A stretch of 64,000 bases of DNA from positions 1 through 64,000 of IMG/VR virus record IMGVR_UViG_3300033149_002975, one strand, 5' to 3'. A program made the translations under genes and the position numbers. This stretch comes from a virus. The first letter of the stretch is position 1; each line of letters starts with the position of its first letter. Under the pieces are notes generated by a model, which saw only the letters and a list, made by a program, of their open reading frames with translations, was not told the origin of the DNA and made no database searches. Below, piece by piece: positions 40,456 through 57,760 of the stretch.

Positions 40456-42105
40456 TTATTTACCAACACCCCTTGAAATTATTTCTTCAAATGAGGCACC
40501 ACTTGAAGTAATAACGGTTTGTAATTGAATGTATTCTGCGGCCCTTGAAGGTTTGACAAAAACATCCACCCTCAATTCATTTTGATCAATAGTTACCCCT
40601 GTGTTGTTTGTCTCATCGCAAACAACGTTGAATCCTTTATCATTACCCTCCGTTTGAAAAGCGCCCTGTGCTGACAAATCATCCAAATAACTGTTCAATA
40701 AAGCCTCGACTCTGAACCTCGTAGTTTCATCATTTGGTTCGAAAACAAATGGTCTAAGAGAAATTGCCATTGCTTTTTCAATAACTATTAACAATCTGCG
40801 GACATTTATTCTGTCAAGAGCGGATGCTTTCTTTTGTAATGTTTTCTGTCCCCAAATGGCAAAACCTTCACCAACAAATGTCTGGAGTGGGTTAATCCCA
40901 GCGGCGTATAATACGTCCCTTTCACCTTCCGTAAATATCAAATTACCATTTGGTCCGGTAATGGCCAATACATCAAGAAGTCCCCTATTTAATCCAGCCG
41001 GAGCCGTCCACGGTTTACCAGCAAAATCATTGTACGCCATTTGTGCAGCAACATAACCAGATGAAGGAACATCAACTATTATATCATTGTATACATCATA
41101 AATTTGACACCACCCGGCGGCCAAACAACCATAACTTGAATTAATGTTCATTGAATTTCTAAATATCACCATATCGGCTACAGTGTTCAATGAAGTCCAC
41201 GGAATATCCAAAACCGCAATACAATCGGCTCTTGTTTCCGCAACCGTTTTTATCTTTGATTGAACACCGGCACCCGTTTCTCCACCATTAATCAAAATTC
41301 TGACATCAACTTTGTCCGGATTGATAAATTCATCCCAACCAGCAATCAATTCAGACGGCGATATTTCAGAGCCATCAGAACCCCCATCAAAATCTAATCT
41401 TACCGGTGAATCTTCTACAACCGCCGATGCCTTCGGTAAAACAGTATCTGCCAAAGCCGAATCGGCGACCGTTATATATTTTGATACACCATTAATTTTA
41501 TCCTCAAGATATAGCTGCTTACCAAAACCATCAATCTTTTTCTTTCGTGAAACTTTCCAAGATTCAACCATTAACCAATTACCGTCGTCATCTTGCCAAT
41601 AAACATTGATTTTAAATGTATATTGATCGGTTGGAACTTCGTCGGATCCGTCTTTCACTTCGGTAATCGTTATTCCTATCCTATTATTCCAAATCCCCTG
41701 GTTGGCCCCGAAAATCTGAATAGCAATCTCAGTATCCATCCCTGAATCAGCATTAAAAGCATTGGACAATCTGCCGGTAGCGAATGCTGCGTTGTTTTCC
41801 GATGAATCAGATTTCATCACATTAACACCACCATACAACGCAGAATTGTGAACCCTTAAGCAATATAATGATTTGCCCTTTGCCAAATACGCCATTGCAG
41901 CATAATGAAAATAATGACCAGACGATGGATCCGGTTTTCCATATTCATTAATAAAATCCTGAACATTGGTCATTAACATTATATCATTGGTTGACCCTTT
42001 AGCTGAATAACCAACTAAGGCGGCAGAAGATGTTGCCACATTTGCGACAATATTTGAAACATCAGTTTCTTTTGCATAAACACCTGGCGACAAAAAAATA
42101 CTCAT
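40456..42105 (-). CDS. Contractile tail sheath protein (gp18-like)
   Basis: SPGVY..E.D, PW.APAG.NRG, WGQKT, INVRRL, FEPND. Confidence 0.92.
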   Translation of the reverse strand: MSIFLSPGVYAKETDVSNIVANVATSSAALVGYSAKGSTNDIMLMTNVQDFINEYGKPDPSSGHYFHYAAMAYLAKGKSLYCLRVHNSALYGGVNVMKSDSSENNAAFATGRLSNAFNADSGMDTEIAIQIFGANQGIWNNRIGITITEVKDGSDEVPTDQYTFKINVYWQDDDGNWLMVESWKVSRKKKIDGFGKQLYLEDKINGVSKYITVADSALADTVLPKASAVVEDSPVRLDFDGGSDGSEISPSELIAGWDEFINPDKVDVRILINGGETGAGVQSKIKTVAETRADCIAVLDIPWTSLNTVADMVIFRNSMNINSSYGCLAAGWCQIYDVYNDIIVDVPSSGYVAAQMAYNDFAGKPWTAPAGLNRGLLDVLAITGPNGNLIFTEGERDVLYAAGINPLQTFVGEGFAIWGQKTLQKKASALDRINVRRLLIVIEKAMAISLRPFVFEPNDETTRFRVEALLNSYLDDLSAQGAFQTEGNDKGFNVVCDETNNTGVTIDQNELRVDVFVKPSRAAEYIQLQTVITSSGASFEEIISRGVGK

Positions 42106-42142: not shown

Positions 42143-42487
42143 TCAAACACGAATTTTATAACCTAAGCTTTCAATAAATGCTTCTATAACCATATCCATC
42201 AAATTGTCCTCAATACCCGCTTTTTCATCGTCATCTGCTATTTCTGTAATTTCCGGCAATAATTCATATAAATGCTCGTTTAAAGCGGGCACAACGTGTT
42301 CATACCAGTTATCTTCGGCTGCCGTCCCAGAAAAGATACTGTCACCCTTTTTATTTAGGATTTTCTTTAGTTTCTTTTTTAATTCATCAATATTATATTT
42401 AATTTTTTCTTCTTTCAATTCTTTTCTTTTAACCAATTCTATTGGTTGATCCCATATAAATTGTAACATTCTTTCAAAAGTATTCAT
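42143..42487 (-). CDS. Hypothetical protein, candidate internal head protein
   Basis: N-terminus MNTFERMLQF nearly identical to that of 44167-44982. Confidence 0.55.
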   Translation of the reverse strand: MNTFERMLQFIWDQPIELVKRKELKEEKIKYNIDELKKKLKKILNKKGDSIFSGTAAEDNWYEHVVPALNEHLYELLPEITEIADDDEKAGIEDNLMDMVIEAFIESLGYKIRV

Positions 42488-42491
42488 TATT

Positions 42492-43427
42492 TTATGCCTC
42501 CATCTTTTTTATATTTCCATCCACAGTATCATCAACCAAATCTTCAATTAATTTTATTTCCGTATCGCCGTCAACAACCGATACTGAAAATATCGTATAC
42601 GAACCATCATTATTGGTCGATCCTTCAATAAATATTGTTTCGCCAACTTCAAAATCGCTGGATCTATCATCCGATATAGTTATCGTATTGTCAATCAAAT
42701 TAACAGCAGAAATTCCGTATAATGAGATTTTTTCCATCCTTAATTTCTGTTCCAATTCCGTGTCTTGTGATGAATCTTCAACCACTATTGATGAATAATC
42801 AGTTACGTAATCTTTATCATATAATGTCATTCGTATTTTATTGATAATCCCAATATTATCATCACTCTTTAAAACCCACGCGTCCAATTTTATTGGCATT
42901 CTATAAACAAAATACCTGCCTTTGTTATATTCAACTGGAACTGTAGATTCATCAACAATTTCCCCAAAATGCAACCACGGTTGTAACACGTACAAATCAT
43001 TATACGTTATTTCCAAAGCCGGTGTTTCGTGTTGCCATAGTATGTAATTTTCAATTATTTGGTAGGCTTTATCCAAATTTTTTGTCCAAAACCACGCATT
43101 ATAACGAATATCTATTGGTTGTGCTTTTACTCTTCTAGGTAAACCATTATCTCTTGGAACAATCAAACCTTTTCTAGCTAATGGGGTTCTCTGTCTTTCC
43201 CAAGACGGTGATGCGCCGACTCTATAAAAATTTATAAATTCTAAAGAATCATATCCACGTTTTTCAGAAATTGTTCTCAACGCCACATCTTTATGAATTT
43301 GTATAACACTTTTATTTATTTTATCGGAAACCTCCAATGCGTCACCAAATTCCAACTTGCTGTGCCATTTTGCAAAAAGCAAAGTTTTCATTGCATCATC
43401 ATAACTTTTTATAAAAGAGACCGACAT
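42492..43427 (-). CDS. Putative tail terminator/sheath stabilizer (gp15-like) with an extra C-terminal beta domain
   Basis: PIDIRY..WFW; position between neck and sheath. Confidence 0.5.
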   Translation of the reverse strand: MSVSFIKSYDDAMKTLLFAKWHSKLEFGDALEVSDKINKSVIQIHKDVALRTISEKRGYDSLEFINFYRVGASPSWERQRTPLARKGLIVPRDNGLPRRVKAQPIDIRYNAWFWTKNLDKAYQIIENYILWQHETPALEITYNDLYVLQPWLHFGEIVDESTVPVEYNKGRYFVYRMPIKLDAWVLKSDDNIGIINKIRMTLYDKDYVTDYSSIVVEDSSQDTELEQKLRMEKISLYGISAVNLIDNTITISDDRSSDFEVGETIFIEGSTNNDGSYTIFSVSVVDGDTEIKLIEDLVDDTVDGNIKKMEA

Positions 43428-43685: not shown

Positions 43686-44167
43686 AATTTAATCCTTCTA
43701 GGTGCAATAGAAAAACATCTCACAATTTCCATATCCTGCATACCTTTTAATGAAAGGTTTACAATTTCGAATTCTGATGTTTTCTCAATACCTTCTGGAA
43801 CTGTTTCTATATCAATTTTAAAATATGATTGTTTACAAATAGATACGTCAACTTCCGATCCAGCATCCGATCCCTCTAAAGCTATGGCCTTTGTTCCAAA
43901 CCAAGCAATAATCGGTAAATTATCTTCTACGTATAATCCAAGTTTCTTTAAACGATAAGCGGTTGGTTGCCACTCAATAAAAACCAAAGCCTGATAACTT
44001 ATATATTGAATATCAGATGGTGTTGCAAAAATATCAGATTTTTCAGCTTCATTGTACGATGCCACAGTTGGTATATATAGTATACAATCCTGCCCATAAT
44101 TCGTCAGTGAAACATTTACTTGGGTACGTAAGGCGTCAACTAATTCTTTTGGCAGCATTCTGGACAT
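43682..44167 (-). CDS. Putative head closure/neck protein (gp14-like)
   Basis: YGQDCILYIP, LKKLG; position. Confidence 0.5.
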   Translation of the reverse strand: MSRMLPKELVDALRTQVNVSLTNYGQDCILYIPTVASYNEAEKSDIFATPSDIQYISYQALVFIEWQPTAYRLKKLGLYVEDNLPIIAWFGTKAIALEGSDAGSEVDVSICKQSYFKIDIETVPEGIEKTSEFEIVNLSLKGMQDMEIVRCFSIAPRRIKL

Positions 44168-44982
44168 TATTTTTCATTCTCTTCATATTCAACATTAAAC
44201 GCTGAATCTTCGATATCTACTTCACCGGTTGGTTCTGATTCAATCCTCTTAGCTGCATCATTCAATTTGGATACCAAATTTTTTATGGCCTCAGCTTCAG
44301 TTTTACCATATGCGAACGCCGTATATTTAGCAACTTTTCCAGGAACTTTTTCTGCTAATTCGTTAACTTTTGATTCAAATTGTCTTCCCCTCTTAAATCG
44401 CCTGTAAATTCTTTTTACGTATTCTTCATCAAAAAAATTTCTCAACATGTTTTGTGCTTCTTCATACGATATTGTATCCGTGTCTCCTAATCTATCTTCT
44501 CTTTCTTCAGGGGGTAAAGAATTCCAACCATTCATAAACCATTCAACAAAAGGCTCTTCGTAAGCAACATCCCCTCTAGTATCATCCCACCCGGATTCAT
44601 TTAATTTTTCGTTCATCGTATCGTTAACATATTTGGTTAATTGGTTAACAATATCCTCTACCGAATCACCCTCCCAATAATCTTTATCTTCAGTTGACAG
44701 ATCACCGGCATTCCAAATTGCATCCAATTGCTCGATAGTTAATGGTTTATTGGATATAAACATAACTTTTGAATCAACTTCATCTTGATCATAATCATAA
44801 ATAACTGCGTCACCACCAACTTGTTGCGTGATTTTTACTATTTCTCTACCGGAAAAACTGTCCTTCCAGTCACAGGAAATTTGTGCTACCCTTATTTTAT
44901 CCCCGGATTCATTTAATTTTTTATCCGTAGGTTCTTCCAACTTATCCTGTACAAATTTTAACATTCTTTCAAAAGCATTCAT
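44167..44982 (-). CDS. Modular hypothetical protein with KLNES/ESKVNE linkers
   Basis: Linkers separate ~100, ~75 and ~60 aa segments. Confidence 0.65.
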   Translation of the reverse strand: MNAFERMLKFVQDKLEEPTDKKLNESGDKIRVAQISCDWKDSFSGREIVKITQQVGGDAVIYDYDQDEVDSKVMFISNKPLTIEQLDAIWNAGDLSTEDKDYWEGDSVEDIVNQLTKYVNDTMNEKLNESGWDDTRGDVAYEEPFVEWFMNGWNSLPPEEREDRLGDTDTISYEEAQNMLRNFFDEEYVKRIYRRFKRGRQFESKVNELAEKVPGKVAKYTAFAYGKTEAEAIKNLVSKLNDAAKRIESEPTGEVDIEDSAFNVEYEENEK

Positions 44983-45929
44983 TATTTTATACCTCCTACA
45001 ATTTTTTTGGTTTTTTCAACATCTTTCGGGCTTAATTCCCCATCTTCTAATAGATCTTTTAACTCTTTTATAATACGTAAATATTGATAACGAACAATAA
45101 ATTTAAATGTTGCGTTTTTATTCTTCCAAATTTTCTTTAAATTTTCATCCCCCATAGCTTGTTCTTTTGATTGTGGTTGTGAAGCCGACCGGCGGGTTTT
45201 TATTAAATCTGACCTTTTTTTATACAACATTTCTATATCATTTTCTATCTCTTTCAATTTTCCTTCCAATTTGGTAAGAAACGATTTTTTTAAATCTTTG
45301 GGCATTTTAGCTATTGCTTGTTTTATCGTTTCATAATCTATGATGTCACGTTTCAACTCCCCCATTTGCAAATCAACACCCTTTACTTCTTTTCTAATTT
45401 CATCAAAAATTTCTGAATAATCTTCATATGGGTCATAATCCTCCGGAACTATCTTTGGTCCTTTTAACCAATTGTCAGACATTATATTATAACAAGCATC
45501 GGCCAAATATTCCTGGTTTATATTTGATTGTATATAAACTTCAATTGGATATTTTCCAAAATAACCATTGATTTTGTCTCGATTATCAGAAAACCAGTCA
45601 AGTACAGCTTTTGAAAATTGTTCATCCTCATAGTATTTGGAATCCGTTGGTATCACTATATGAACATCAATATCTGAATCCTCACTGTATTGATTGGTAC
45701 ATATTGATCCTGTAATGTGAATCATTTTTTCTGAATCTTCACCGGTAGCCGCCATATCAATCAAATCAACATCTTTGTATTTTCCCAAAACATTTAAAAT
45801 TTTACGCCTTACCAAAGGCTTAAGTGTATATTTACCATTTTTAAAATCCCAAATGGATTTATTTAGAGTTTCACCCCTTGGAAAATCAATTGAAGATTCG
45901 ATGATTCTTTTATATAATTGTCCAAACAT
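44982..45929 (-). CDS. Pol-beta superfamily nucleotidyltransferase
   Basis: ITGSI.TNQY..DSDIDVHI...PIEVYIQ, then a helical C-terminal domain. Confidence 0.75.
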   Translation of the reverse strand: MFGQLYKRIIESSIDFPRGETLNKSIWDFKNGKYTLKPLVRRKILNVLGKYKDVDLIDMAATGEDSEKMIHITGSICTNQYSEDSDIDVHIVIPTDSKYYEDEQFSKAVLDWFSDNRDKINGYFGKYPIEVYIQSNINQEYLADACYNIMSDNWLKGPKIVPEDYDPYEDYSEIFDEIRKEVKGVDLQMGELKRDIIDYETIKQAIAKMPKDLKKSFLTKLEGKLKEIENDIEMLYKKRSDLIKTRRSASQPQSKEQAMGDENLKKIWKNKNATFKFIVRYQYLRIIKELKDLLEDGELSPKDVEKTKKIVGGIK

Positions 45930-45936
45930 TATTTTT

Positions 45937-48219
45937 CTATTCTTTCCTATCTCCAACTGTCCGCCAAAATAGGTTTTCATCAAATCTTGGGTTGTCCTCT
46001 TTAAACATCCTGACCAAAGCTGAAGCAAAAGCTTTAACATCGTCATTCAATGGTACCAGCTTTTTTAATTCTTTGGCTATCTCTTTATAATGCTTTCTTG
46101 AAAAATGGGATTCATTAACTTTTGATTCTTTCACAATTACTGCAAATTTTTGGGAATCTTCAGAATCCGGTATAACTACCCCGTTTTTCTCTCTCGCAAT
46201 TCTGTCAGCTTCTTCTCTATCAACTATCCCTTTCGCGATAACTGTTCTTGTTTCCTTTTCTTCCTCATTAACTTTGGATTCACCAACTTTTATTGTTCCT
46301 TCTCTATTTGTTTCGTCTACCCTTGCATGCTCATCCAAATAATTTTCCAAAACAATTAACTTGTCACGATCAGATGTTGCATTCCCCGTTTCATATATTG
46401 CTTGTAGTGCTTCTTCAAAAACACATTGTGGCTCTTTAGTCCATACGGGGTCCGAATCAAAATGCACGGTAACTTTGTAATAACTTTCTTTTGGTGAAAC
46501 ATTCCTTGGCAATCTGGCTTCATTAACCCCCGACATTTCAGACCCCAAATATTTTACACCATTTTCCTCAGCTAACTCTTCTCCTGTCTGATCTGCAAAA
46601 TCTTTCAATTCTTCTATCGACAGTGCGTTTTCTGTTCCAGGTTCAGCTATTTGTTGACTATCAAGTCTATGATTTCCAGCGATATAAATTTCTCTATCGG
46701 ATTTCGTGTCCACTATTCTATATCCATATTTGTCTACTACCCCATAAAGATCACCCATTTTCGCGTCTTCATTGGTTTTTCGTTCCGGGAGAATATAAGT
46801 TCCATCCAAATCTTTTATTTTTCTAGAACTAATGACACGTTTTTCCGGACTCTTCACTCTTGCCTTATTCATTGCGTCAACACGCGAATTGGCATCCAAC
46901 TCCACAACTGAACCGTCAAAAAATATAACTCTATATGTGCCGGGGTCAACGTGTACCCCAACTTCGTTCAATTCTCCGGTTATTTTCTCAACTCTTTCAC
47001 TGCCACATTCTGTACATTTAGATTCATTAGCTCTAAAAGTTTTGCAACATTCATTACAAAGATAAAGGCTTTTCCTTGTTAATGATTCACTGGTTCTAAG
47101 ACGACGGCCGGCAGTTCTTCTAGGACGGCCGGCAGTTCTTCTAGGACGGCTGGCAGTTCTTGCCCCACGTTCTGTATAACCACACGAATTACAAACCCAC
47201 GAACCACGAACTGGCGTCATTTTTTTATTGCATTTTGGGCACTTTTTTCCCGCCATTATTCTTTTGCCAACACCAAACTTTTGTCTCTGATATGATCCTC
47301 TACGAGGACCAGTTCCACTTCGTTCACCACTTTTAGTAAAAGATTCACCAACCTTTTTCATGCTACGGGTACCGGTTTCACTGTGAATCTTTTTACCTTT
47401 TGTATCTACTTTTTCTTCCGCCTGGGGGTTTTCCACCATCCCCACATCTTCCGCCTTTAACCCCTTTCCCTCTCCGGGTTTTTGGGTCTGGGGAACATTG
47501 GGTTTTGTTTTATCCTTAACTTTTGCTTTTTTTGATGCCGGTGCAGCAGGTGTTGATTTGGCCTTTGAACCATCAGTAGCCACTACTCCTTCAGCAACCG
47601 TTGATTCACTAGTATCCCAAACAATATTATAAGCTGTTCCGGTTCCATCGTCATTTCGTTTGATATCTAATTCGCTAACTAGGAACCCATAGCTATCGGA
47701 CAAATAATCAGCAACGGCCGTATCATTTCCCGCCTCTTGATCATCCATTATTTCTTTTGGAACATTATCGACCTTTTTTGGTAAATTATTGGCCTCACTT
47801 GTCACAGTTTTACTACGTTTTCCTCTTAACCACCTTCGTTCGGGACCCCACAGGTGGGCACCAGGTAAAGCTTCTCTGATCTTTTTCTTTTCAGTAACTT
47901 CGGTATTGTCAAACAGTTCTCTAATTTTATTATTAATCTCTTTACTGTATGGCAATTCATTTATATCTTCCGGAACATAAATATTGGTAGTTTCTTTACC
48001 GTTGTTAAATTTTATTTCTTCTTTTATGCTGCCAGTAGCTGTTTCTACATAAACGTCAACATCTGAATCAACATCTTTGTATGCCCCAACGTATTGCCAT
48101 ATTCTATTGGCTTCTCTGATCTTTTTCTTTTCAGCTTCCCTTATTGCCCTATCGTTTTCAGCATAAGCTTTTTTCAACGATTCAAAGAGATCAAACATTC
48201 CTTGGTTCTGCATTCTCAT
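45937..48219 (-). CDS. Large modular protein (760 aa) with zinc ribbons, Arg-rich repeat and repeated linkers
   Basis: KKKIREA x2, ESKVNE x2, CPKC..CNSC, CNEC..CTEC. Confidence 0.7.
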   Translation of the reverse strand: MRMQNQGMFDLFESLKKAYAENDRAIREAEKKKIREANRIWQYVGAYKDVDSDVDVYVETATGSIKEEIKFNNGKETTNIYVPEDINELPYSKEINNKIRELFDNTEVTEKKKIREALPGAHLWGPERRWLRGKRSKTVTSEANNLPKKVDNVPKEIMDDQEAGNDTAVADYLSDSYGFLVSELDIKRNDDGTGTAYNIVWDTSESTVAEGVVATDGSKAKSTPAAPASKKAKVKDKTKPNVPQTQKPGEGKGLKAEDVGMVENPQAEEKVDTKGKKIHSETGTRSMKKVGESFTKSGERSGTGPRRGSYQRQKFGVGKRIMAGKKCPKCNKKMTPVRGSWVCNSCGYTERGARTASRPRRTAGRPRRTAGRRLRTSESLTRKSLYLCNECCKTFRANESKCTECGSERVEKITGELNEVGVHVDPGTYRVIFFDGSVVELDANSRVDAMNKARVKSPEKRVISSRKIKDLDGTYILPERKTNEDAKMGDLYGVVDKYGYRIVDTKSDREIYIAGNHRLDSQQIAEPGTENALSIEELKDFADQTGEELAEENGVKYLGSEMSGVNEARLPRNVSPKESYYKVTVHFDSDPVWTKEPQCVFEEALQAIYETGNATSDRDKLIVLENYLDEHARVDETNREGTIKVGESKVNEEEKETRTVIAKGIVDREEADRIAREKNGVVIPDSEDSQKFAVIVKESKVNESHFSRKHYKEIAKELKKLVPLNDDVKAFASALVRMFKEDNPRFDENLFWRTVGDRKE
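47103..47161. repeat. 21-bp coding tandem repeat (RTAGRPR)
   Basis: gacggccggcagttcttctag x2 plus a partial copy. Confidence 0.85.
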
Positions 48220-48224
48220 ATTAT

Positions 48225-48668
48225 TTACTCCTTTATAGAATTTGACATATCTATAATTTTTGCTTTATTGCCATTAATATCCGTCCAATTACCAGCTTGT
48301 CCTGTATTTTCCCAATCAATTAGATCCTTAACTCTGTCATAAATTGTCTTTCCCCGCGTCCACATTGCAACCTCATATTTCCCATTTACATTTATCATCG
48401 GTTTATATTCAACCGGTAAACGGGCAAAACGTGTATTTAACAATGCATGAACCACAGCCGGTGTATTTTTTTCAGACCCCAAAATCCAATTTAAAATATT
48501 GAGGGCCAATTTATCCTTGGGTAAGATACTAGCACCATTTTTTATCAAAATATCAAACAGTTTATCCACACCGGTACAAGGGGCATTCAATTTGTAATCA
48601 CCCAGAATTTGCAACAAGTTTTTATAAACCGTTAAATTTTTAGCTTCAAACAATTTATTGATGTTCAT
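48225..48668 (-). CDS. Hypothetical protein
   Basis: N-terminal KLFEA motif also present in the capsid propeptide. Confidence 0.6.
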   Translation of the reverse strand: MNINKLFEAKNLTVYKNLLQILGDYKLNAPCTGVDKLFDILIKNGASILPKDKLALNILNWILGSEKNTPAVVHALLNTRFARLPVEYKPMINVNGKYEVAMWTRGKTIYDRVKDLIDWENTGQAGNWTDINGNKAKIIDMSNSIKE

Positions 48669-48670
48669 TT

Positions 48671-50086
48671 TTATTTTTCCTTTTTAATAACTAAATCATC
48701 TATTACATTTTTAATTCTTTGAAAAGTCCCCCGTTTAAACAAACCACCAACGGGCCAAATCGTACTGTACACAATTTTGATTCCCGATGTTATATCTTCC
48801 TCAATTGCATCGAGTAACTCTTTGTCGGCCACATAAATTGTCTGACTTGGGTTGTACATAAAATCTATAAGATATTCAAAACCTAAATGGTATCCTTCGT
48901 ATAAAGAATTCATTCTAGTACCAAATATGTAATCAAAATCCCTAAAAACATCAAAAGTATTCAATTCCGACTTATTGGATAATGCAGCAATTAGCATTTC
49001 CAAATTTCCGCGGTCTTCACCGTATTCACGTAATAGTCGTCCATAGATTCGTTGTATATCACGTTTCATTTTCTCATTAGAAACCGCAATTGATTCCCCG
49101 GAAGAAGTTGTATATTGCACAACACCAAATACTGAATACCAATTCCACGCCATCTCTTGAAGTTTTATGAATTCCTTATTATGAAATAACGAATATAATT
49201 CAGTTTTTAATTTTGAACGAAGTTTCTTCATATCCGCTTCATTGGCCTCGAATAAACGACGTTCCTCCAATGATTCCTTCATATTCCCGAGCTTCAACAA
49301 TTTTCCGTTTATCTTGTTGCCAAATATCTTCAAAAAACCATCCCAGTGTTTTTTGGGAACTAAAAACTTGACTTTATTTTTAATTATAAACTGTCGTGGG
49401 TCCAAATCATCTAAAATTTCCAAATCCCAATCAGGTTTTTCTTCAGCTAAAGTTGTAAGCATTGCTTTAACAGCTCCTAGTTGCGTCGGCAAATAAGAAA
49501 TGTTGGACATAGTGGTGGATTCATTAATCTTTACTTCATTGGCGGTTATAAGTTCCATTTCCCGCTTACTTGCACCCAACAACCATTCCAATTGTTCTTT
49601 CGGATGAAGACTTGGAATTGATATAGCCTTCTTAAACCATATAATTCTTCTGAACCCATACCTATCATATAGATTGCATATTGTATTAATTTGTTTGTCA
49701 GTTAATTTTTTCTTATTTTCTATATTAATTTCTTTATTACTAACTGAAACCACAACAGCCCCTGAATCAAGCATACGATATTTATCGTAAATATCACTAT
49801 CTGTATATTCCAGGGCCAACTCCCCCAGCCGTCCTTCTCTGTATTTACGTTCCCCTTTTTTATAACCAAAATCTTTGTGTGCAAACGGTACGTGAATTAA
49901 TGACCCATCATTTAACAACCAAAATTTAACGTAATTACCTTCGCGAGGCCACGTGCTATATTTCTTATAATCAGCTTCTTTCGCAACGCCCCATTTCTTT
50001 TTTACCAATGATTGGATATTGGGCAATCTCGACTCGTCAATCATTACTCCATCAAAGACTTTTGTTGCTAAATTGTATAAAGACAT
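48671..50086 (-). CDS. Modular hypothetical protein
   Basis: MIDES, KINES and RLFEA linkers. Confidence 0.65.
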   Translation of the reverse strand: MSLYNLATKVFDGVMIDESRLPNIQSLVKKKWGVAKEADYKKYSTWPREGNYVKFWLLNDGSLIHVPFAHKDFGYKKGERKYREGRLGELALEYTDSDIYDKYRMLDSGAVVVSVSNKEINIENKKKLTDKQINTICNLYDRYGFRRIIWFKKAISIPSLHPKEQLEWLLGASKREMELITANEVKINESTTMSNISYLPTQLGAVKAMLTTLAEEKPDWDLEILDDLDPRQFIIKNKVKFLVPKKHWDGFLKIFGNKINGKLLKLGNMKESLEERRLFEANEADMKKLRSKLKTELYSLFHNKEFIKLQEMAWNWYSVFGVVQYTTSSGESIAVSNEKMKRDIQRIYGRLLREYGEDRGNLEMLIAALSNKSELNTFDVFRDFDYIFGTRMNSLYEGYHLGFEYLIDFMYNPSQTIYVADKELLDAIEEDITSGIKIVYSTIWPVGGLFKRGTFQRIKNVIDDLVIKKEK

Positions 50087-50106
50087 TTTTATCCCTTTAG
50101 GAGACC

Positions 50107-52272
50107 TTAGTACGGACTTTCTTCCGGTAATCTACCAAGCTTTGTAAGAATCTGCCGCACCTCCTCAAGCCATTTATCTAATTGCAACCCACGTCTAGAC
50201 TCAGGATCATCTATATCCATCACCAGATGTCCAAGTGCCGGAAAATCTCTGTGCCACTGATTAACAGCATTATCTAAAGCAACCAACGCCTCACCCGGGT
50301 CTTTTCTAATTATTGCCGATTGAATTTCTTGTAATCTTTTTCTATACGCTTTATAAATTTCCTCATCTTCAATTTTATCCTGTTCGTATTTATCATACCA
50401 CTCCAAATATCCTTTATAATAGCCCTTCATCATATATAAAGCTTCAAACACGTTTTCTGGTGATGGGTCGATACCCCTTTCTATGTCATGATAAACTTTA
50501 TACAAAGCTTTGACCCCAGAATAATCAACGGATTCTTTTAACCGATTTTTCCAATATTCATTTTCCGCTTTAATACCATTTTCTGAAGTAAATTTTGATC
50601 CACCTTCCTCAAACCACCATTTAGTGTATTCATCAAAAAGATAAAAATCAGCGTAGTGACCCCAAAATTCTATATCGACCCATAATTTTAATTGTAATTC
50701 AGCCTCTAATTGTGCCTTTTCATTCCTTGATAATTTACCGTAAGCAAATTTATCAACTTTGAAATATTTTTCATAATCGGGTTCCCACCACCCCATCCAA
50801 TCACCCGCCGGTACTGGTTTATTGGGTTTTCTATTTAATATATAAATCACCTTATTATTATCAAGAATTTTAACAGTATATTTATCATTCGATGCTTCGG
50901 CTATTGATTTTATCGTTCCATTCGTGTAACCAGTTATTGTTCTTTTATCATTTTCATATTCATCATAAACGAATTTGGCAAATTTGTCTTCATTTATCGA
51001 TTCTCTTAAAGCGTACCCACCACTAAATATACTGTACCCATTTTTATCCCTTGCATCAAACCATTTACTACTTTTTTTCTTTCTAAAAATAATAGCTGGT
51101 GAATTCTTATACATAATTCCGGCAGGAACATGAACTTCAACCATTTCCCCGCCTTTATCAATAATTTTTACATTATCCAATTCCACAATATCCATTTTTG
51201 GGTGTGATCTACTTCCGGACCATTCCGCCCATTTAACCTTAACATTTTCATATTCTTTTGGGTAACCAACAACCTTTTTTCTAGATAATTCTTTCATTTG
51301 TTTCAAATCTTCATCCGCTTGCATACGAGTATCTTCATCATAGTCTTGTGGGTTTATATAAACATTTATATCATAATAATCGGTCGGATTATACTTGCAA
51401 CTTGTATGGTGCCACTCGGACGGGGAAAGAACTTGTTTTAATGCTTTAGTTGTTACACCCAATTTTTTTGCAGCAATGGAAGCAGGGAATTTTCCAATAT
51501 GTTCCGCCTCAACCGCCCTTTTACTTTTAGAATACCCAACATAACCTCTTTCATTAATTGATTCTTTGGTCTCTTCTTTCTCCGGCTCTTCCTTCTCCGG
51601 CTCTTCTTTTTTTATCTCTTTTCTCTTCCCTAATTCCTCGCCAGCCTTTTTGAATTCTTCGGATTCTTTCTTAGCTTCATCCTCGAATTCTTCAATATCT
51701 TTTCCATAAAAATCATTCAACCATCGAGCAATCGTCGAATTGTAAAACGGCAAAGCCTTAAATAATGCGTCCAAATGCTTACACACAGCCCCATATTGAT
51801 GTGGATTTCTAATTCTTGGTGCCCTGGTTTCTTTATCCCCATATTTCGCATTATATTTATCTTTGCTTAATATATAATTGAAACCCCAATATTGCTGACA
51901 GGGACAATTACACGTGATTTTAACTTCCGCTTGATTACGAAATTCATTAGCCAACAACCTTAAATCAATTTTCGATTTATCACGTGTCCACAATCTTCGA
52001 TCTTTTACCAGTTTTTCCAAAGTTGGTGTAATATTTGAAAATTTGATAACCGCGTCATACCATACAGACTTTTTAGTTCCAGAATGAATTTTAAAATGCC
52101 AGGATTCGGTTCCTAATCTATCCAACCTGACACCACCCATATGGCCAACCTTTTCCACACGCCCAGGGTGGGCTGGGAACAAAGAAGTGATGGTACGTTG
52201 CTTTCTTGTAATATCAGCCACCGTTGCTTCATTTATTCTATCAATAGTTTTTGTTAATAATTTGTATAACAT
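50107..52272 (-). CDS. SWIM zinc-finger modular protein
   Basis: TCNCP...GAVCKHL; ESINE x2 linkers; EWHHTS module. Confidence 0.7.
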   Translation of the reverse strand: MLYKLLTKTIDRINEATVADITRKQRTITSLFPAHPGRVEKVGHMGGVRLDRLGTESWHFKIHSGTKKSVWYDAVIKFSNITPTLEKLVKDRRLWTRDKSKIDLRLLANEFRNQAEVKITCNCPCQQYWGFNYILSKDKYNAKYGDKETRAPRIRNPHQYGAVCKHLDALFKALPFYNSTIARWLNDFYGKDIEEFEDEAKKESEEFKKAGEELGKRKEIKKEEPEKEEPEKEETKESINERGYVGYSKSKRAVEAEHIGKFPASIAAKKLGVTTKALKQVLSPSEWHHTSCKYNPTDYYDINVYINPQDYDEDTRMQADEDLKQMKELSRKKVVGYPKEYENVKVKWAEWSGSRSHPKMDIVELDNVKIIDKGGEMVEVHVPAGIMYKNSPAIIFRKKKSSKWFDARDKNGYSIFSGGYALRESINEDKFAKFVYDEYENDKRTITGYTNGTIKSIAEASNDKYTVKILDNNKVIYILNRKPNKPVPAGDWMGWWEPDYEKYFKVDKFAYGKLSRNEKAQLEAELQLKLWVDIEFWGHYADFYLFDEYTKWWFEEGGSKFTSENGIKAENEYWKNRLKESVDYSGVKALYKVYHDIERGIDPSPENVFEALYMMKGYYKGYLEWYDKYEQDKIEDEEIYKAYRKRLQEIQSAIIRKDPGEALVALDNAVNQWHRDFPALGHLVMDIDDPESRRGLQLDKWLEEVRQILTKLGRLPEESPY

Positions 52273-52275
52273 AAA

Positions 52276-53055
52276 TTAGACCGCTACCAAACTCTCGGTA
52301 TTGTGGGAACAGATACCATAATGTCCAATAGCAAAATTACAATTTCTGCATAAAATTCTAAAATCACTTGGAAAATTATTATAAATTATCCAATCATATA
52401 TACCGGACCCAACATCTTTTCTGTGTTTACAACCACCACCACAAATATGATCGACGGATAACACATCAAAATTCTCTTCCCCGCAGCATTCACACTTCCC
52501 ACCATAATAACCAATAACTGTACTCCTAATTCGTGCATAACGTCCATTAACACGTTTAATTGAATTAAGATATTTTAACCAATTACAATTATGACATAAA
52601 ACCTGAAATCCTGATGGAAAATTATTATTAATTATCCACCGGTAAAACCCATAACCACTAAATGATTTAATTTGTTCTGTTCCGCCGCCATTAATATGAT
52701 CTACGGTCAAGAACATTAAATTGGACTCACCACAACAAGCACATTTGCCACCATAATGGGTAATAATTTGTAATTTTATTTTCTGTCCATACTCAAAATG
52801 TCTCAATTTCTCTTCGGTGGCGTGATTATCCCTAAATTTCTTTCCGTACCTCCTTATTTCTTCAATATGTTCTTTTCGATACAAACCCCAATATTCATTA
52901 AACCGATCTTTGTTGTCCTTTCTATATGTACTCTTACATTCTTTACACTTTGAATACAAACCATCCGGTGAATATTTGTTTCTACTAAAATATACTGATG
53001 TAGCTGGTAATTCTCTTTTACAACCAGAACAAATTTTAATACCATCATTAATCAT
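52276..53055 (-). CDS. HNH homing endonuclease-like protein with tandem HNH domains
   Basis: Two copies of YGGKC.CCGE...VDHI.GGG...F..LC.NCN; N-terminal CxxC..CxxC. Confidence 0.75.
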   Translation of the reverse strand: MINDGIKICSGCKRELPATSVYFSRNKYSPDGLYSKCKECKSTYRKDNKDRFNEYWGLYRKEHIEEIRRYGKKFRDNHATEEKLRHFEYGQKIKLQIITHYGGKCACCGESNLMFLTVDHINGGGTEQIKSFSGYGFYRWIINNNFPSGFQVLCHNCNWLKYLNSIKRVNGRYARIRSTVIGYYGGKCECCGEENFDVLSVDHICGGGCKHRKDVGSGIYDWIIYNNFPSDFRILCRNCNFAIGHYGICSHNTESLVAV

Positions 53056-53759
53056 ATTTTGCGCGCGAATATGACCCATCTTGAATCTTCAGCCAATCTG
53101 TCTTCAAGTTCCTTGGCCCGTTCTTTTCCATCATTCACCATTGATTGCCCATCATTTGCTATATTAACAATTGATGATTTTCTCAATGTATTGCCTTCTA
53201 TTTGCTGAAGTAGCGCTTTACTGTATCGTAACAGCCAATCGTATATCGGCTCAATTTTTACATCTTCAAATTCTGTGATTCTTTTTGTTCCTATGACGTA
53301 TAACTTATCAGTTCCCGCCGGAACATTTATTGCATATAAATAACCGCCAACATTCATATCTTCAGATTTTTGCCATATAAATTGAAAATCAGTACCAACG
53401 TAAGCTCTATACGATCTGAAAGCCTCTGAAAGCATTATCAAATCGCCGGTTACATTATCCAAAACCGTAATACCCATCAAAGTCCACAACGGATGATCAT
53501 TCCAAATCCACGTTGTGGTTTTTGATGGATAACAATCTGCTACTGCCTTAAATTGTGCATTCAATTGAACACGTTTGGTGCCGGGTGGAAAATCAACCAT
53601 TGTTTCTATACGATAAGCGGAATGTGTATTCCAATACCTAATGGCATTTTCTACTATTTGTTTTAACGTAGTATCTGGTGTTGCCAATTGCAGTGGTAGA
53701 AATTCTTGTTTCAACCATTTTATGTATTTATCATAATTTCGCTCACCTGATTCAGCCAT
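53052..53759 (-). CDS. Neck/head-tail adaptor (gp13-like)
   Basis: AIRYW, WLLRYSKAL...G..LRK, DG.....LEDRL; follows the capsid gene. Confidence 0.65.
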   Translation of the reverse strand: MAESGERNYDKYIKWLKQEFLPLQLATPDTTLKQIVENAIRYWNTHSAYRIETMVDFPPGTKRVQLNAQFKAVADCYPSKTTTWIWNDHPLWTLMGITVLDNVTGDLIMLSEAFRSYRAYVGTDFQFIWQKSEDMNVGGYLYAINVPAGTDKLYVIGTKRITEFEDVKIEPIYDWLLRYSKALLQQIEGNTLRKSSIVNIANDGQSMVNDGKERAKELEDRLAEDSRWVIFARKI

Positions 53760-53867: not shown

Positions 53868-55403
53868 CTAGGCAGTTGTTCCAATACCAGAAATTTTACC
53901 CTTTGTGAATAATCCAGGATTTACAACCTTGAATCCCGCAGAACTTAGGAAACCTTTCTGTGACTGTAGATCACTGGTGATCAGCGTCGGAGTTGCAAAC
54001 AACGGAATATAAGGTGCATAAATGAACGAAGAATACAAAAAGTTTTCGCCTTTATAGGCTTCAACATAACTGTTCTCGTCCATAAATGGATTCTGAACTA
54101 CTATCATGTTGTTAACCGACGTAACATTTCCTATAACTATTGGACCTGTCGGGATATCCTTCTCCCAGTTAAACGAAGGTTTAAACGAACCCTCAAGACC
54201 AAACCCAGGAGTTAATTGGCGAAGCACTCTGGCAACATTATTACCGCAAATGCAAACATTACCAACACCTCTCAAGGTTTTCTTGAAAATAGCATTTGAA
54301 CCCTGAATCAAACGATCCGTAAACTCTCTGCAATGAAGTGTCCACGCCTGACCGGAACGTATTGCAGCGTTCCAAGTGTCATTGGATTCAGCGGCATCAT
54401 CGTCGTCTGCAGCAGCAATCATCATATCAAGACCTCTCTGATCAATTGCAAACTTGGCCATACCGCCAACATACTTGATCATTTCATCTTCAAGATTGAT
54501 GCCGTGCGCTTTCTGCAAATCGATGGCTGCACCCACCGAATATTGTGCACGTGCCGGAAAATCTTCAGCAGTTACTGTTTCCTGTACAACTTCAACATCA
54601 AATCCGGAAACACCAGTTTTCTTGTCGTTATCATCGGTCGGCAAATCATACTGATACCAGTAACTTATCAATACCGTATCATCCGAATCAAGCCCGGAAA
54701 TTTCGATTGAATAAGTACCGGCAGCAGTAATTGTTCCTGCAACCGTAACGCCATCATCATCTACATCAACCAGTGTGCCATCGGAATTACAAGTAGCAAT
54801 TGTCGAATAAGTACCGGCAGCAGTTAATCTTTCGATGATTACATTATCAAGATGAATTAGTCCGGGATTGATGTCAGTTGGACCGGGACCATACGTTCCA
54901 TCACCAACGCCAAGTGTCTCCCTTGAAACCGCAGCCATAGCGTATTTGCGGCCACCGCGCTTCGTGTTGACACCAGTTTTTGCCGATATCAACGATTCTC
55001 CAGCAGCTACCTCACCCTTCTTATTGGCGGCCAATACATTTAGATAAAACACAGCAGCAATTCTTCTATCCAACGGCTGAATGGTAGCTATTTGGTTGAG
55101 AACCAACGAAGGAAGCAATGCAGCAATTACCGGCAACTGAATGCCCAAAAAGCTAATGCTATCTTCAGTCGTGGCCTCAAACAGCTTGCTATGACGTCTA
55201 GACATCGCATCTTCGCGTGCATTCTGCATACACTGGGCAATGGACATCTTCTCGTACAAACTCATCTCACGTCCTTGCTCCGCCTTGACACCCTCTGCAA
55301 CCATTTCTATCAACGGTTTGATCTCTGGATGCTCAAGGAGGCGCATTCGGCGACCCTCCATAAGGGCCATTTCTGATTTCTGTGCCTCTGTTAATGGCAA
55401 CAT
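53868..55403 (-). CDS. Major capsid protein (T4 gp23-like)
   Basis: IQPL....VFYL, DLQKAHGINLEDE, YKG......YAPYIP. Confidence 0.9.
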   Translation of the reverse strand: MLPLTEAQKSEMALMEGRRMRLLEHPEIKPLIEMVAEGVKAEQGREMSLYEKMSIAQCMQNAREDAMSRRHSKLFEATTEDSISFLGIQLPVIAALLPSLVLNQIATIQPLDRRIAAVFYLNVLAANKKGEVAAGESLISAKTGVNTKRGGRKYAMAAVSRETLGVGDGTYGPGPTDINPGLIHLDNVIIERLTAAGTYSTIATCNSDGTLVDVDDDGVTVAGTITAAGTYSIEISGLDSDDTVLISYWYQYDLPTDDNDKKTGVSGFDVEVVQETVTAEDFPARAQYSVGAAIDLQKAHGINLEDEMIKYVGGMAKFAIDQRGLDMMIAAADDDDAAESNDTWNAAIRSGQAWTLHCREFTDRLIQGSNAIFKKTLRGVGNVCICGNNVARVLRQLTPGFGLEGSFKPSFNWEKDIPTGPIVIGNVTSVNNMIVVQNPFMDENSYVEAYKGENFLYSSFIYAPYIPLFATPTLITSDLQSQKGFLSSAGFKVVNPGLFTKGKISGIGTTA

Positions 55404-55420
55404 GTTCTTCACCTTTCCTT

Positions 55421-57760
55421 TTAAGATTTTAATCCTAATACATTGTTAATAATTGTTTTCTGACGTTTTCTAACTGGGTCGATTGGTTCTTTTCGCTTTT
55501 CAATTAATACCGTTTGCACCGGATTGGCATGAAGTGCACGCCTACGCGAAACATCGCGGCATTCGTCTAAAGCTTTATCGACCTCTTCAATTGTCTGACA
55601 ACTTTCAAGAAGTGCTCGTTGGTTGTCAGAAATTTGTAGCCCATTTGATTCCTTTGTTAAATATTCTTTAATTATTCTTGCTCTAACTTTTTTTTCAGTT
55701 TGCTTTATTTTTTCATCAAATTTTTTGTTGGCCTCCGTCATTTCCCTATCATGCTTTTTCTTTAATCCTGCGGCCTTTTGTTTTAAATATGAAGTTACTT
55801 TTTTGATTTCTGCTTTTGCATTATTAAGTTTCTTCTCCAATATGTTTATCTTTGCTGTTAATTCATTGCTACGTTTCATTAAATCCTGTGCTGATTTTGC
55901 CTTCTCTTCAAGTTTTAACCTTAAAGCCAAAACATCATCAGATTCTGCATTCCTCATTTCTTTAAGCTTTTTGGTAAGAATTCGAAATTCCAAATCTTTA
56001 TCAGCTATGGTATTCAAAAATTCGACTGCCAAATCTCTTTCAGCGCGTGAGGTGGCTTCTTTAATTTGTAATTCCATGATATCTTTACCAATGGGTCTAA
56101 CTATTTCCGGTTTCGATACAGACATTACCCCCTCTGGAACTGTTTCACTGAAAGAAGTTTTCAATATTCCGGCAATTACCTTCGCCATTTCAACAGCTTT
56201 TTCTTTTGTTGGAAAACTAAATGTCAAGTAAGCAGCACCATTTGCTGGCTTCCTATAAACACCGTATTTATCATTCAAAAAACCGGTCTCATCAACAAAT
56301 AATATGTCTTTATCCTCATTAATTTTTGACTCTTCAAGAACTATTATTTCATATTGTGATTCATCATACCAGTCATCAATACCGTCAATTTTTACGGCGG
56401 TCGTTCCTTCGGGTTCCGTTGTACTAACATCCACAACTTTTCCAAATGGAACAATTGTCGTGTTACCGTCTTTATCTTTTATTTGTACAATATTCCCAAC
56501 TTTATAACGTTCATTTAACATTTCATTGATATAATCAATAATTTGTTCCACCGATTCATTCCTTTGGTGTGCCGGTTTTACGGCACGTTTCTTTCCCAAT
56601 GCACCCATACAACGCTTGTAGGCTTCTTTTTGCGTCATTTCTCCAGATTTGATTTTTGCCGCATAACCTGTAGCACATTTGTGGAAAGCTTTCGTGTGGA
56701 CCCCTTTACCTTTTGGGGGTTTCAAACCTTTGCTGGTGTACAATTTTCTAATCTCTTCTGTTTCATTAACTTTTGATTCTTTCATATCTTCCGAATCCAA
56801 ATCAAATTCCTCCTCAAAATCTTCGTCCGACAATTCGATATCTTCACCGGACGTATCATCGTCAACGTCCCCAGTTTCCGTTTGCGTCCCATCATCAGGT
56901 ATAGCTATTTCATCAGGTGCTCCTTGTGGGGGCGTTTCCACGGTAATTTCAACCGTTGAATCGGGTTGATCCGGTAACACATTAACCGATTTTACATCCC
57001 CGGTAGCAACAATTTTTTGTGTATTTGGGTTCACTCCCACCGTTATTTGTTCTTCATTGGTCCTTGATTCAGACGATATTCTAATATTACCTTCAACTAT
57101 TTTACATTCCCCTTTATCATTACACTCTATAGATTCCAAAAGTTTCATTGCAAATCGTTTCTCTTCCGGCTTTATTTTCTCGTTCTCAATTTCTTTGCGG
57201 ACGGCAGACATTATGTTTCTTTTTATGTCTATTGGGAAAGCACCAAATGTTGAAGGGTCTGCCGTAAAATCTGTAACTTTAAAATTATACGCTTCAGGAA
57301 TTACATGATAACATTTATTGCCGGACTCATCAATTTCTTCTCTCAAATCACCCTCAGCCCTCGTTGACACACCAATATTACATTTGGCAGCCAACAATGC
57401 GTCAATAATTCTGCCCTGCGGGGTATCCAGAACATCCATCTCAGTATATACTTTACTCTCGTCCATCCACATTTTAACAATTACGTGAGAAATTAATGGA
57501 GTTTTGGATTGAATGCCGTCAGGGTGCTCTGCGTGCCCAAATAACGAACGATTCTTTATTGAATCCATCAATTCTTTGTTTTCAAAGAGCCTTTCCCACA
57601 CATCGCGTCCGTATATTCGGTGATTGGCATTAATTTTCCCTATATTACAAATGGGATAGACCACACGGCATAAAACACGATCCGGCAATTTGTCGGTTTT
57701 CACCAATCTCCCGCCTGTGGTAATCGATTCATCCAATTTTTGGTTTTTTAATATTCTCAT
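55421..57760 (-). CDS. Prohead protease (gp21-like) fused to inserted modules and a scaffold-like coiled coil
   Basis: NANHRIY, GHAEHP, ISH, LDTPQG, GVSTRAEG, DFTADPS; long K/E coiled-coil C-terminus. Confidence 0.85.
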   Translation of the reverse strand: MRILKNQKLDESITTGGRLVKTDKLPDRVLCRVVYPICNIGKINANHRIYGRDVWERLFENKELMDSIKNRSLFGHAEHPDGIQSKTPLISHVIVKMWMDESKVYTEMDVLDTPQGRIIDALLAAKCNIGVSTRAEGDLREEIDESGNKCYHVIPEAYNFKVTDFTADPSTFGAFPIDIKRNIMSAVRKEIENEKIKPEEKRFAMKLLESIECNDKGECKIVEGNIRISSESRTNEEQITVGVNPNTQKIVATGDVKSVNVLPDQPDSTVEITVETPPQGAPDEIAIPDDGTQTETGDVDDDTSGEDIELSDEDFEEEFDLDSEDMKESKVNETEEIRKLYTSKGLKPPKGKGVHTKAFHKCATGYAAKIKSGEMTQKEAYKRCMGALGKKRAVKPAHQRNESVEQIIDYINEMLNERYKVGNIVQIKDKDGNTTIVPFGKVVDVSTTEPEGTTAVKIDGIDDWYDESQYEIIVLEESKINEDKDILFVDETGFLNDKYGVYRKPANGAAYLTFSFPTKEKAVEMAKVIAGILKTSFSETVPEGVMSVSKPEIVRPIGKDIMELQIKEATSRAERDLAVEFLNTIADKDLEFRILTKKLKEMRNAESDDVLALRLKLEEKAKSAQDLMKRSNELTAKINILEKKLNNAKAEIKKVTSYLKQKAAGLKKKHDREMTEANKKFDEKIKQTEKKVRARIIKEYLTKESNGLQISDNQRALLESCQTIEEVDKALDECRDVSRRRALHANPVQTVLIEKRKEPIDPVRKRQKTIINNVLGLKS

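Follow-up and report, generated by a model that had tools for sequence, protein, structure and literature searches.

The head genes of the uncultured phage studied here carry short exact direct repeats, and these are probably copies of the linker DNA that joins portable modules of head-internal polyproteins, exchanged via general recombination. The stretch analysed (the window) corresponds to positions 1-64,000 of a 102,811-bp (103-kb) IMG/VR virus record, IMGVR_UViG_3300033149_002975, which has direct terminal repeats and 36% G+C; its head-morphogenesis module, at 42-61 kb, lies entirely on the minus strand. The linkers are first of all probable sites of the phage's own prohead protease, and the role in recombination sits on top of that one. 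The relatives compared, given below as L-numbered loci and P-numbered proteins, are all metagenomic assemblies; P0125, P0124, P0002, P0004 and P0009, the last two from the capsid search, are known as proteins only.

Linker Repeats in the Head Genes

Two exact repeat pairs had been pointed out in a preliminary description of this DNA, and each proved to consist of exactly two copies (Table 1): the 25-bp sequence had no match in shuffles, 0.03 were expected for the 20-bp sequence, and both are absent elsewhere in the window even with three mismatches allowed. Every copy is in frame, within minus-strand open reading frames (ORFs): the 25-mer codes for EKKKIRE plus the first two bases of an alanine codon, at amino acids (aa) 29-37 and 109-117 of a 760-aa ORF, and the 20-mer codes for KLNESG, at aa 21-27 and 125-131 of a 271-aa ORF. 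Just outside each repeat, identity is at the random level, 0.19-0.38 as compared with a random mean of 0.28.

As for the near-identical ESKVNE codons of the same description, those at 46111-46128 and 46264-46281 have 16 of 18 bases in common; the further similar copies exist as well, near 44349, 56752 and 60615. A 23-bp exact copy common to two different genes (46111-46133 and 56762-56784) was not on that list, and the linker at 46264-46281 has a 17-bp exact stretch in common with 60626-60642 in the 1098-aa gene. The spacings within the three pairs, 240, 312 and 153 bp, are multiples of three as described, yet they carry no evidential weight because this is automatic for one peptide repeated in one ORF. 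Assembly artefact was rejected as the origin of the repeats: they are shorter than the usual assembly k-mers, the frames are open, and the same architecture occurs in more than 20 independent assemblies.

Regarding identity beyond protein-level constraint, the claim was borne out with a null model in which synonymous codons were permuted among positions of the same amino acid in 16 head-region genes, with proteins and codon usage fixed, in 400 shuffles. Non-tandem exact repeats of at least 17, 20 and 23 bp numbered 7, 4 and 2, against 0.52, 0.04 and 0.018 expected, and no shuffle matched the observed counts at 20 or 23 bp; codon bias as the sole cause of the identity therefore fails. The 25-bp and 20-bp pairs themselves turned identical in 0.5% and 1% of the shuffles (analytic values, 0.005 and 0.006), and both contain rare codons (AAG 19%, ATC 10%, TCC 14%, GGG 16%), TCC and GGG being those in the 20-bp pair. 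The seven repeats correspond to four linkers, one N-terminal leader common to two genes, one capsid-gene repeat, and one that is unexplained, a 17-bp match coding for YKDVD (45764-45780 and 48066-48082) that may be due to chance. The capsid-gene repeat is an exact 20-bp direct repeat (54709-54728 and 54805-54824, 96 bp apart) that codes for T-A-A-G-T-Y twice. It represents a minor duplication within a variable region of the protein, and its improbability under synonymous shuffling equals that of the linker repeats.

The linker serine provides a second DNA-level signature: its codon is TCN in 142 cases and AGY in 9 (n = 151), and TCN in 9 of 9 within the window, while AGY makes up 27% of control serines in an [ED]-S-[KR] context outside the motif (Fisher P = 5e-9) and 32% of all others. 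This P value is inflated because orthologous sites are counted repeatedly; the within-genome pattern stands. Since the TCN and AGY families are not interconvertible in one synonymous step, the fixed family is an argument for linkers having been copied and not reinvented, their DNA spreading by descent. From its ortholog in L030, the 23-bp linker at 56762-56784 differs in 7 bases out of 23, against 4 of 24 in the flank on each side, and it is probably a patch of ectopic conversion. The exact ESKVNE 18-mer is also found in frame in 26 other, unrelated-looking viral contigs, often about 18 aa from the N-terminus; the peptide is thus in wide use, but its 18-mer is the likeliest codon string, and for that reason is uninformative on DNA sharing.

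Modules at the Repeats and Their Relatives

Module X1, between the two 25-bp copies, had no homolog among the 1.84 billion representatives searched. As for X2, the module that comes next, its core (aa 152-205) is 70% identical to P0126, a free-standing protein of 60 aa that stops where the linker begins; elsewhere, X2 occurs as free-standing proteins of 57-60 aa and as the C-terminal domain of P0127 and P0129. The 760-aa gene was also compared with P0125, a 228-aa fragment from an 827-bp contig: leader and first linker are 89% identical, P0125 having N for R before the final Glu, and aa 206-293 match it again, at 67% identity. Between the two matching segments the window has X1 and X2 (168 aa), whereas P0125 has an unrelated zinc ribbon of 49 aa; beyond the next linker the two diverge again, and P0125 has pentapeptide repeats. 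The preliminary description had suggested looking for a different module between the same linkers, and the zinc ribbon of P0125 replaces X1 and X2 at the very linker of the 25-bp repeat.

In the 271-aa protein, the module between the 20-bp copies matches P0124 over 91 aa at 56% identity. The matching part of P0124, a protein of 220 aa with an unrelated zinc-ribbon N-terminus and no such linkers, is its C-terminal domain (124-214); the homology begins two residues past the first KLNE linker and ends just before the second. The module that follows is 42% identical to one inside the protease-scaffold polyprotein of L022, and their end linkers align. The 51-aa (153-bp) module of the 760-aa gene has homologs in at least 11 relatives, in differing genes and positions: upstream of the capsid gene in L010, L061 and L066, downstream of it in L013, L014, L028, L044, L073, L080 and L096, and near the N-terminus in P0002; in nearly all cases the module is preceded by a linker.

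Module Gain, Loss and Reordering

L030 is the closest relative, with a capsid protein 92% identical, and its ortholog of the 721-aa gene has 438 aa; the net difference is 990 bp, in frame. Identity between the two is 71% as far as the linker and 64% once the next conserved segment begins; what lies in between is, in the window, an insert of about 335 aa, formed by two modules with an internal linker at aa 423-428, and in L030 a single linker. The edges of the insert carry K-E-S and a V-[GD]-Y-S remnant on both sides, with a remnant of the linker downstream. Likewise, L056 has a linker, 111 aa and a linker at the place of a single linker in L052 (345 bp). The expectation that a lost module leaves one linker behind thus agrees with what is seen in the 721-aa gene of L030 and in L052 versus L056.

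Other relatives differ in similar ways. An extra 72 aa stands between two linkers in L042, against one linker in L022; after the protease domain, one position differs in L050, L054, L056 and L053, where there is one module, none, a different one and a larger deletion. The module order in the 1098-aa gene is Ma, Mb, Mc in the window and Ma, Mc, Mb in L002 (capsid 70% identical); one of the alignments of L002 to this gene begins precisely at a linker, and in L003 versus L004 the homology resumes exactly at one. Overall, 7.3% of alignment ends are 3 aa or less from a strictly defined linker, versus 2.9% at random (2.5-fold; shuffle maximum, 4.9%). As in linker-mediated modular shuffling of the Botstein-linker or PeSL (promoter plus stem-loop) type, the repeats flank single exchangeable units, and such units are present, absent or replaced with one repeat left. 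The original proposal of gain, loss or shuffling of modules at linker DNA is largely supported by the relatives, mostly at boundaries other than the three that it listed.

Linkers as Predicted Prohead-Protease Sites

The linkers have the form aliphatic-x-Glu, mostly with Glu-Ser-Lys in front; all 15 listed linkers read [VILM]-N-E, and IRE/A and LNE/S (the slash marks the predicted cut) also fit the aliphatic-x-Glu rule. Six head genes around the capsid gene (4100 aa) contain the motif ES[KR]?[VILM]NE 11 times, and the rest of the genome, 102 ORFs with 27,002 aa, has no occurrence of it; shuffling the residues of the six head proteins gave a mean of 0.03 occurrences. In about 90 related loci, with capsid identities of 38-92%, the same genes carry [ED]-S-K-[VILM]-x-E, with x variable.

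The protease itself is encoded in the 779-aa protease-scaffold gene, which adjoins the gp23-type capsid gene directly upstream; a Pfam scan identified PF03420 (Peptidase_S77; 32.4 bits, cut-off 27), and PHROG 207, head maturation protease, matched aa 36-213 with E = 5e-28. Proteases of the T4 gp21 family cleave after Glu, at ITE and LTE (T4 Alt), AXE (SPN3US) or S/A/G-X-E (phiKZ) (PMC5694885). The features of S77 substrates are found here: an S77 protease encoded in the head module, an aliphatic residue two before Glu, and sites confined to head genes. From these sequence features we infer that the linkers are cleavage sites of the phage's T4 gp21-type prohead protease, and that the genes code for leader-bearing polyproteins cut into modules. 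The conservation of the linkers would then have a protein-level cause, because they are first of all probable protease sites.

The capsid protein has a predicted propeptide site of the same kind: among 17 homologs, with identities as low as 58%, there is no variation at L77, F78, E79 or the residues that come next. Compared with mature T4 gp23, the predicted cut is about 16 residues nearer the conserved core, which is compatible with cleavage and not decisive. Structure prediction of the 271-aa protein with AlphaFold2, run without an alignment, gave a predicted local distance difference test score (pLDDT) of 48, and the model was not used.

Table 1. Positions of linkers, modules and genes in the window (other coordinates as indicated)
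Feature	Position	Strand	Remarks
Linker EKKKIRE/A, copy 1; closes the N-terminal leader of the 760-aa polyprotein	48110-48134	-	Exact 25-mer
Linker EKKKIRE/A, copy 2; between modules X1 and X2	47870-47894	-	Exact 25-mer; rare codons in common with copy 1
Linker KLNE/SG, copy 1; after the leader of the 271-aa protein	44902-44921	-	Exact 20-mer
Linker KLNE/SG, copy 2	44590-44609	-	Exact 20-mer
Linker ESKVNE, aa 647-652 of the 760-aa protein	46264-46281	-	
Linker KESKVNE, 760-aa gene	46111-46133	-	23 bp identical to 56762-56784
Linker KESKVNE, protease-scaffold gene	56762-56784	-	Identical to 46111-46133
Module X1, about 72 aa of unique sequence between the 25-bp copies	47895-48109	-	Start-to-start spacing 240 bp = 80 aa
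Module X2, aa 117-210, ends in the linker ES-T-V-A-E	47590-47869	-	
Module between the 20-bp copies, conserved core aa 29-119	44610-44901	-	
Next module of the 271-aa protein, aa 130-208, ends in ESKVNE	44347-44589	-	
51-aa module between two ESKVNE linkers	46129-46263	-	
Two modules without counterpart in L030, about aa 242-581 of the 721-aa protein	50530-51549	-	
271-aa protein ORF	44167-44982	-	
760-aa polyprotein ORF	45937-48219	-	
1098-aa polyprotein, six linkers	57778-61074	-	
779-aa gene: fusion of prohead protease (about aa 1-235), linker-bounded modules and coiled-coil scaffold	55421-57760	-	
Major capsid protein, T4 gp23 family	53868-55412	-	Pfam PF07068, E = 7.5e-31; matches mature gp23 structures
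Predicted capsid propeptide site S-K-L-F-E/A, aa 75-80	55176-55190	-	Invariant in homologs from L77 onward
Tail sheath-like gene	40456-42105		Follows the head module
Pentapeptide-repeat domains	Genome 64708-66081, 72723-73220, 76154-76993; L002:4525-7758; P0125		First one begins 708 bases past the window end

Mechanism and Alternative Explanations

In the mechanism proposed, the prohead protease would cut after the final Glu of each linker inside the prohead, freeing the modules; with a cut at each linker, they would be released whatever their order or host gene. At the DNA level, homologous or short-homology recombination between linker copies, within the genome or among co-infecting relatives, could proceed via RecA/UvsX. 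Linker-by-linker exchange would delete a linker-module-linker unit, and any single linker might take up a module, through template switching or when an excised circle of linker plus module integrates there; either route would leave identical linkers on both flanks of the module. Since the joint is coding and of fixed phase, the reading frame would always be kept, and the order of the modules would be neutral because the protease later separates them.

The genome encodes RecA/UvsX (95905-97026; PF00154, E = 1.6e-42), and with it an SbcC-like ATPase and an Mre11-like phosphoesterase. With RecA/UvsX encoded by the phage, an integrase would be unnecessary; the preliminary description was right that no dedicated integrase is in view, and this general recombination set is what is present instead. 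No integrase was found in 10 head-module proteins (Pfam and PHROGs), 10 further ones (PHROGs) and 10 replication and recombination proteins (Pfam), a scan that was not exhaustive. A further step would be that linker DNA, besides coding for cleavage sites, has evolved as a frame-keeping recombination joint, an integrase-free cassette system at the protein level, with units moving among any linkers, head polyproteins and co-infecting relatives; this can be put forward tentatively, and is rather doubtful at present.

Some points weigh against linker-borne exchange as set out above. Regarding the breakpoints, only about 13% of alignment ends lie within 6 aa of a strictly defined linker, and some in-frame indels of the protease-scaffold gene are off the canonical linkers; one of these falls directly after C-K-I-V-E at the end of the protease domain, from its sequence a likely autocleavage site. 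The 25-bp pair was compared with relatives at the protein level only, and its founding event is not reconstructable. The uniformity within genomes of the residue before the final Glu is marginal (p = 0.056) and was not used as evidence. As for the protease, the predicted cleavage rests on sequence, the Pfam match is modest (32 bits), and no solved structure was matched when the protease part was searched by sequence. Finally, breakpoints at linkers could reflect the survival of viable recombinants and not targeting by homology.

This last point can be extended until the linkers act as a selection filter only: illegitimate recombination would take place anywhere, linkers would mark the joints that survived, and the exact repeats would be small local duplications. 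The in-frame indels off the canonical linkers, the alignment ends, most of which are away from linkers, and the short junction repeats of the 721-aa gene (about 8 plus 10 bases) all favor such a filter; however, exact linker copies of 20-25 bp flank modules, the 23-bp copy is present in two genes 10 kb apart although its own ortholog differs at 7 of 23 bases, and linker-module-linker versus single linker recurs in independent phage pairs, so that a filter acting by itself is unlikely. A sequence-specific nuclease, such as the HNH endonuclease of the head module, might instead break DNA near the linkers, with modules riding in the repair tracts. L030 lacks the HNH gene (52276-53079), which in the window is about 650 bp away from the two modules inserted into the 721-aa gene. 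This proximity is a single coincidence, with no known recognition site, and linker-bounded exchanges are also seen at a distance from HNH genes and in relatives that have none close by, which makes a role of this kind very unlikely.

Two further explanations were considered. That linker pairs are remnants of old tandem module duplications, whose bodies diverged past recognition, is highly improbable: the region does have tandem repeats (the RPRRTAGR units and the acidic repeats described below), but identity falls from 100% in the linker to the random level at the first base beyond, and the modules flanking a pair have homologs elsewhere that are unrelated. The least probable account is convergence, where peptide constraint and the codon bias of an AT-rich genome would produce the repeats with no recombination; preferred codons do converge, as illustrated by the ESKVNE 18-mer, the commonest one, in the 26 unrelated-looking contigs, yet the counts were reached in none of the 400 synonymous shuffles, both pairs use rare codons, and the codon family of the linker serine is fixed well past the context control. 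Copied linker DNA that joins exchangeable modules is accordingly retained as the probable explanation.

Genomic Context and Other Features

The phage has no close cultured relative: the best capsid identity is 26% over most of the length (29% over half), and blastn of 44000-50100 against cultured phages gave no match. IMG/VR was also scanned with single proteins, the capsid protein and P0125, without a match, and a PHROG scan of 10 neighboring ORFs assigned hardly any names. Two homologs from the capsid search, P0026 and P0067 (about 50% identity), are recorded in NCBI under metagenome bins named Candidatus Thorarchaeota and Candidatus Hodarchaeota; these labels could be a binning artefact or a hint at the hosts of the phage family.

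Regarding leaders, two genes of 114 and 271 aa, unrelated in other respects, have in common a 62-nucleotide repeat (42449-42510 and 44944-45005, 84% identity) that spans their ribosome-binding sites and first 13 codons; this shared leader, conserved as DNA, is probably a capsid-targeting sequence. Leaders of the type M-x-[DE]-L-L open small genes at the same position in L003, L004, L044 and L096. The 354-aa ORF listed at 44982-46046 overlaps the 760-aa gene by 110 bp; its true start is probably the Met at 45929, because the alignments of its homologs begin at about aa 35-50. The encoded protein, with a nucleotidyltransferase domain (PF01909) and a leader ending in I-I-E/S, is conserved in relatives and shows no mosaicism among them.

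As for recurrent segments of the polyproteins, a G-T-G-P motif with a basic Gly-rich stretch is found at about 47290-47340 (aa 295-320 of the 760-aa gene) and about 59400-59520 (aa 518-563 of the 1098-aa gene); the two together occur in many relatives, with 55-65% identity over about 40 aa, often beside a zinc ribbon. Three 21-bp tandem units at 47093-47161 (RPRRTAGR units) encode an Arg/Pro-rich heptad, and four 18-bp tandem units at 59935-60024 encode an acidic Glu/Pro hexad; both sets are in frame inside a polyprotein, which suggests slippage-prone spacer segments. A leader-bearing head protein contains two linker-bounded modules that are pentapeptide-repeat domains of the DNA-mimic type; such domains are also found as free-standing early-region genes (52-55% identical) and in polyproteins of two relatives (Table 1).

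Insertions are found at other places of the head module. The HNH gene, between the 235-aa and 721-aa genes, is a 778-bp insertion relative to L030 (L030:5760-5765). The adjoining 235-aa gene has interruptions in two relatives, one of 275 bp in L030 and one of about 800 bp, beside a zinc-finger ORF, in L004; the locus looks like a hot spot for mobile endonucleases. The capsid gene is interrupted by insertions of 0.3-1.4 kb in L012, L013, L022, L023 and L029, that of L022 (10881-12309) being 1428 bp long with a 305-aa ORF; these look like an intron or intein with a homing enzyme.

Significance

Proteins carried in phage heads enter the host before the DNA does, and the examples from T4 include counter-defence factors. 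A widespread family of uncultured phages seems to assemble such head cargo as strings of small domains separated by a protease; order and context would be irrelevant after cleavage, and therefore almost any linker-to-linker recombinant would be viable, an unusually permissive way to evolve and exchange cargo. If linker DNA has indeed evolved as a joint, the family would have a common pool of capsid-delivered cargo domains, and single populations may hold module-plus and module-minus variants at appreciable frequency. The exact linker copies, the fixed serine codon family and the linker-bounded indels make the idea directly testable. In practical terms, the grammar of leader, linker and module might be used for loading foreign proteins into capsids, and the catalogue of small domains (zinc ribbons, pentapeptide-repeat DNA mimics, orphan folds) could be screened for anti-defence activity.

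Comparison with Known Systems

The polyproteins resemble the T4 internal proteins IPI-III and Alt, which are head-packaged, with an N-terminal leader, Glu cleavage and a variable payload exchanged between relatives. In the T4 internal proteins, a short conserved leader is removed after Glu by the prohead protease, and the payloads are variable and exchanged (PMC5694885, PMC3012670); the internal-protein loci of T-even phages are polymorphic, according to Repoila 1994 as cited in PMC2839356. However, the T4 proteins have one gene and one site per payload, with intergenic exchange elements, whereas the phage described here has up to about 10 modules per reading frame, internal sites and coding, in-frame joints.

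The promoter plus stem-loop (PeSL) cassettes of T4-type phages also consist of single units flanked by short conserved repeats; recombination at the repeats inserts or deletes a unit, mini-circles have been proposed, and no integrase is involved (Arbiol 2010, PMC2839356). PeSLs are non-coding, regulatory and intergenic, in early regions, whereas the linkers are peptide-coding and inside late structural genes; the repeats found here, being inside long ORFs, are not the non-coding promoter plus stem-loop repeat of PeSLs proper. In the gp38 adhesins, conserved coding glycine-rich motifs separate variable segments, with exchange within or near the motifs (PMC3157838); these motifs, however, form the structural core of one folded domain, and the segments are its loops, inseparable and not cut apart.

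As for the heads of phiKZ, 201phi2-1 and SPN3US, they have in common with the phage described here a gp21-related protease, a cut after Glu at a three-residue motif, and multiple sites per substrate; in these giant phages the P3 residue is Ala, Ser or Gly and not aliphatic, and linker-bounded shuffling or DNA linker repeats are not described in the literature searched. In polymorphic toxin loci (the VENN motif of CdiA, the Rhs core), a short conserved coding motif marks where variable C-terminal modules swap by homologous recombination; such loci have one joint per gene and a logic of toxin and immunity. We know of no multi-cassette strings in them, and of no protease that releases each piece.

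Integron cassettes are similarly arrays of repeat-bounded single units that are gained and lost singly, but integrons depend on the IntI integrase and on attC/attI sites, with whole genes as cassettes; no IntI-type tyrosine recombinase was found beside the array in the proteins scanned (Pfam and PHROGs, not genome-exhaustive), and the repeats are without evident dyad symmetry by eye, no attC structure search having been made. Full-text literature searches retrieved no paper describing this linker or such shuffling of polyproteins. In conclusion, the parts are known singly, and what appears to be new is the multi-module head polyprotein whose predicted cleavage-site codons would double as in-frame exchange joints with DNA-level signatures.

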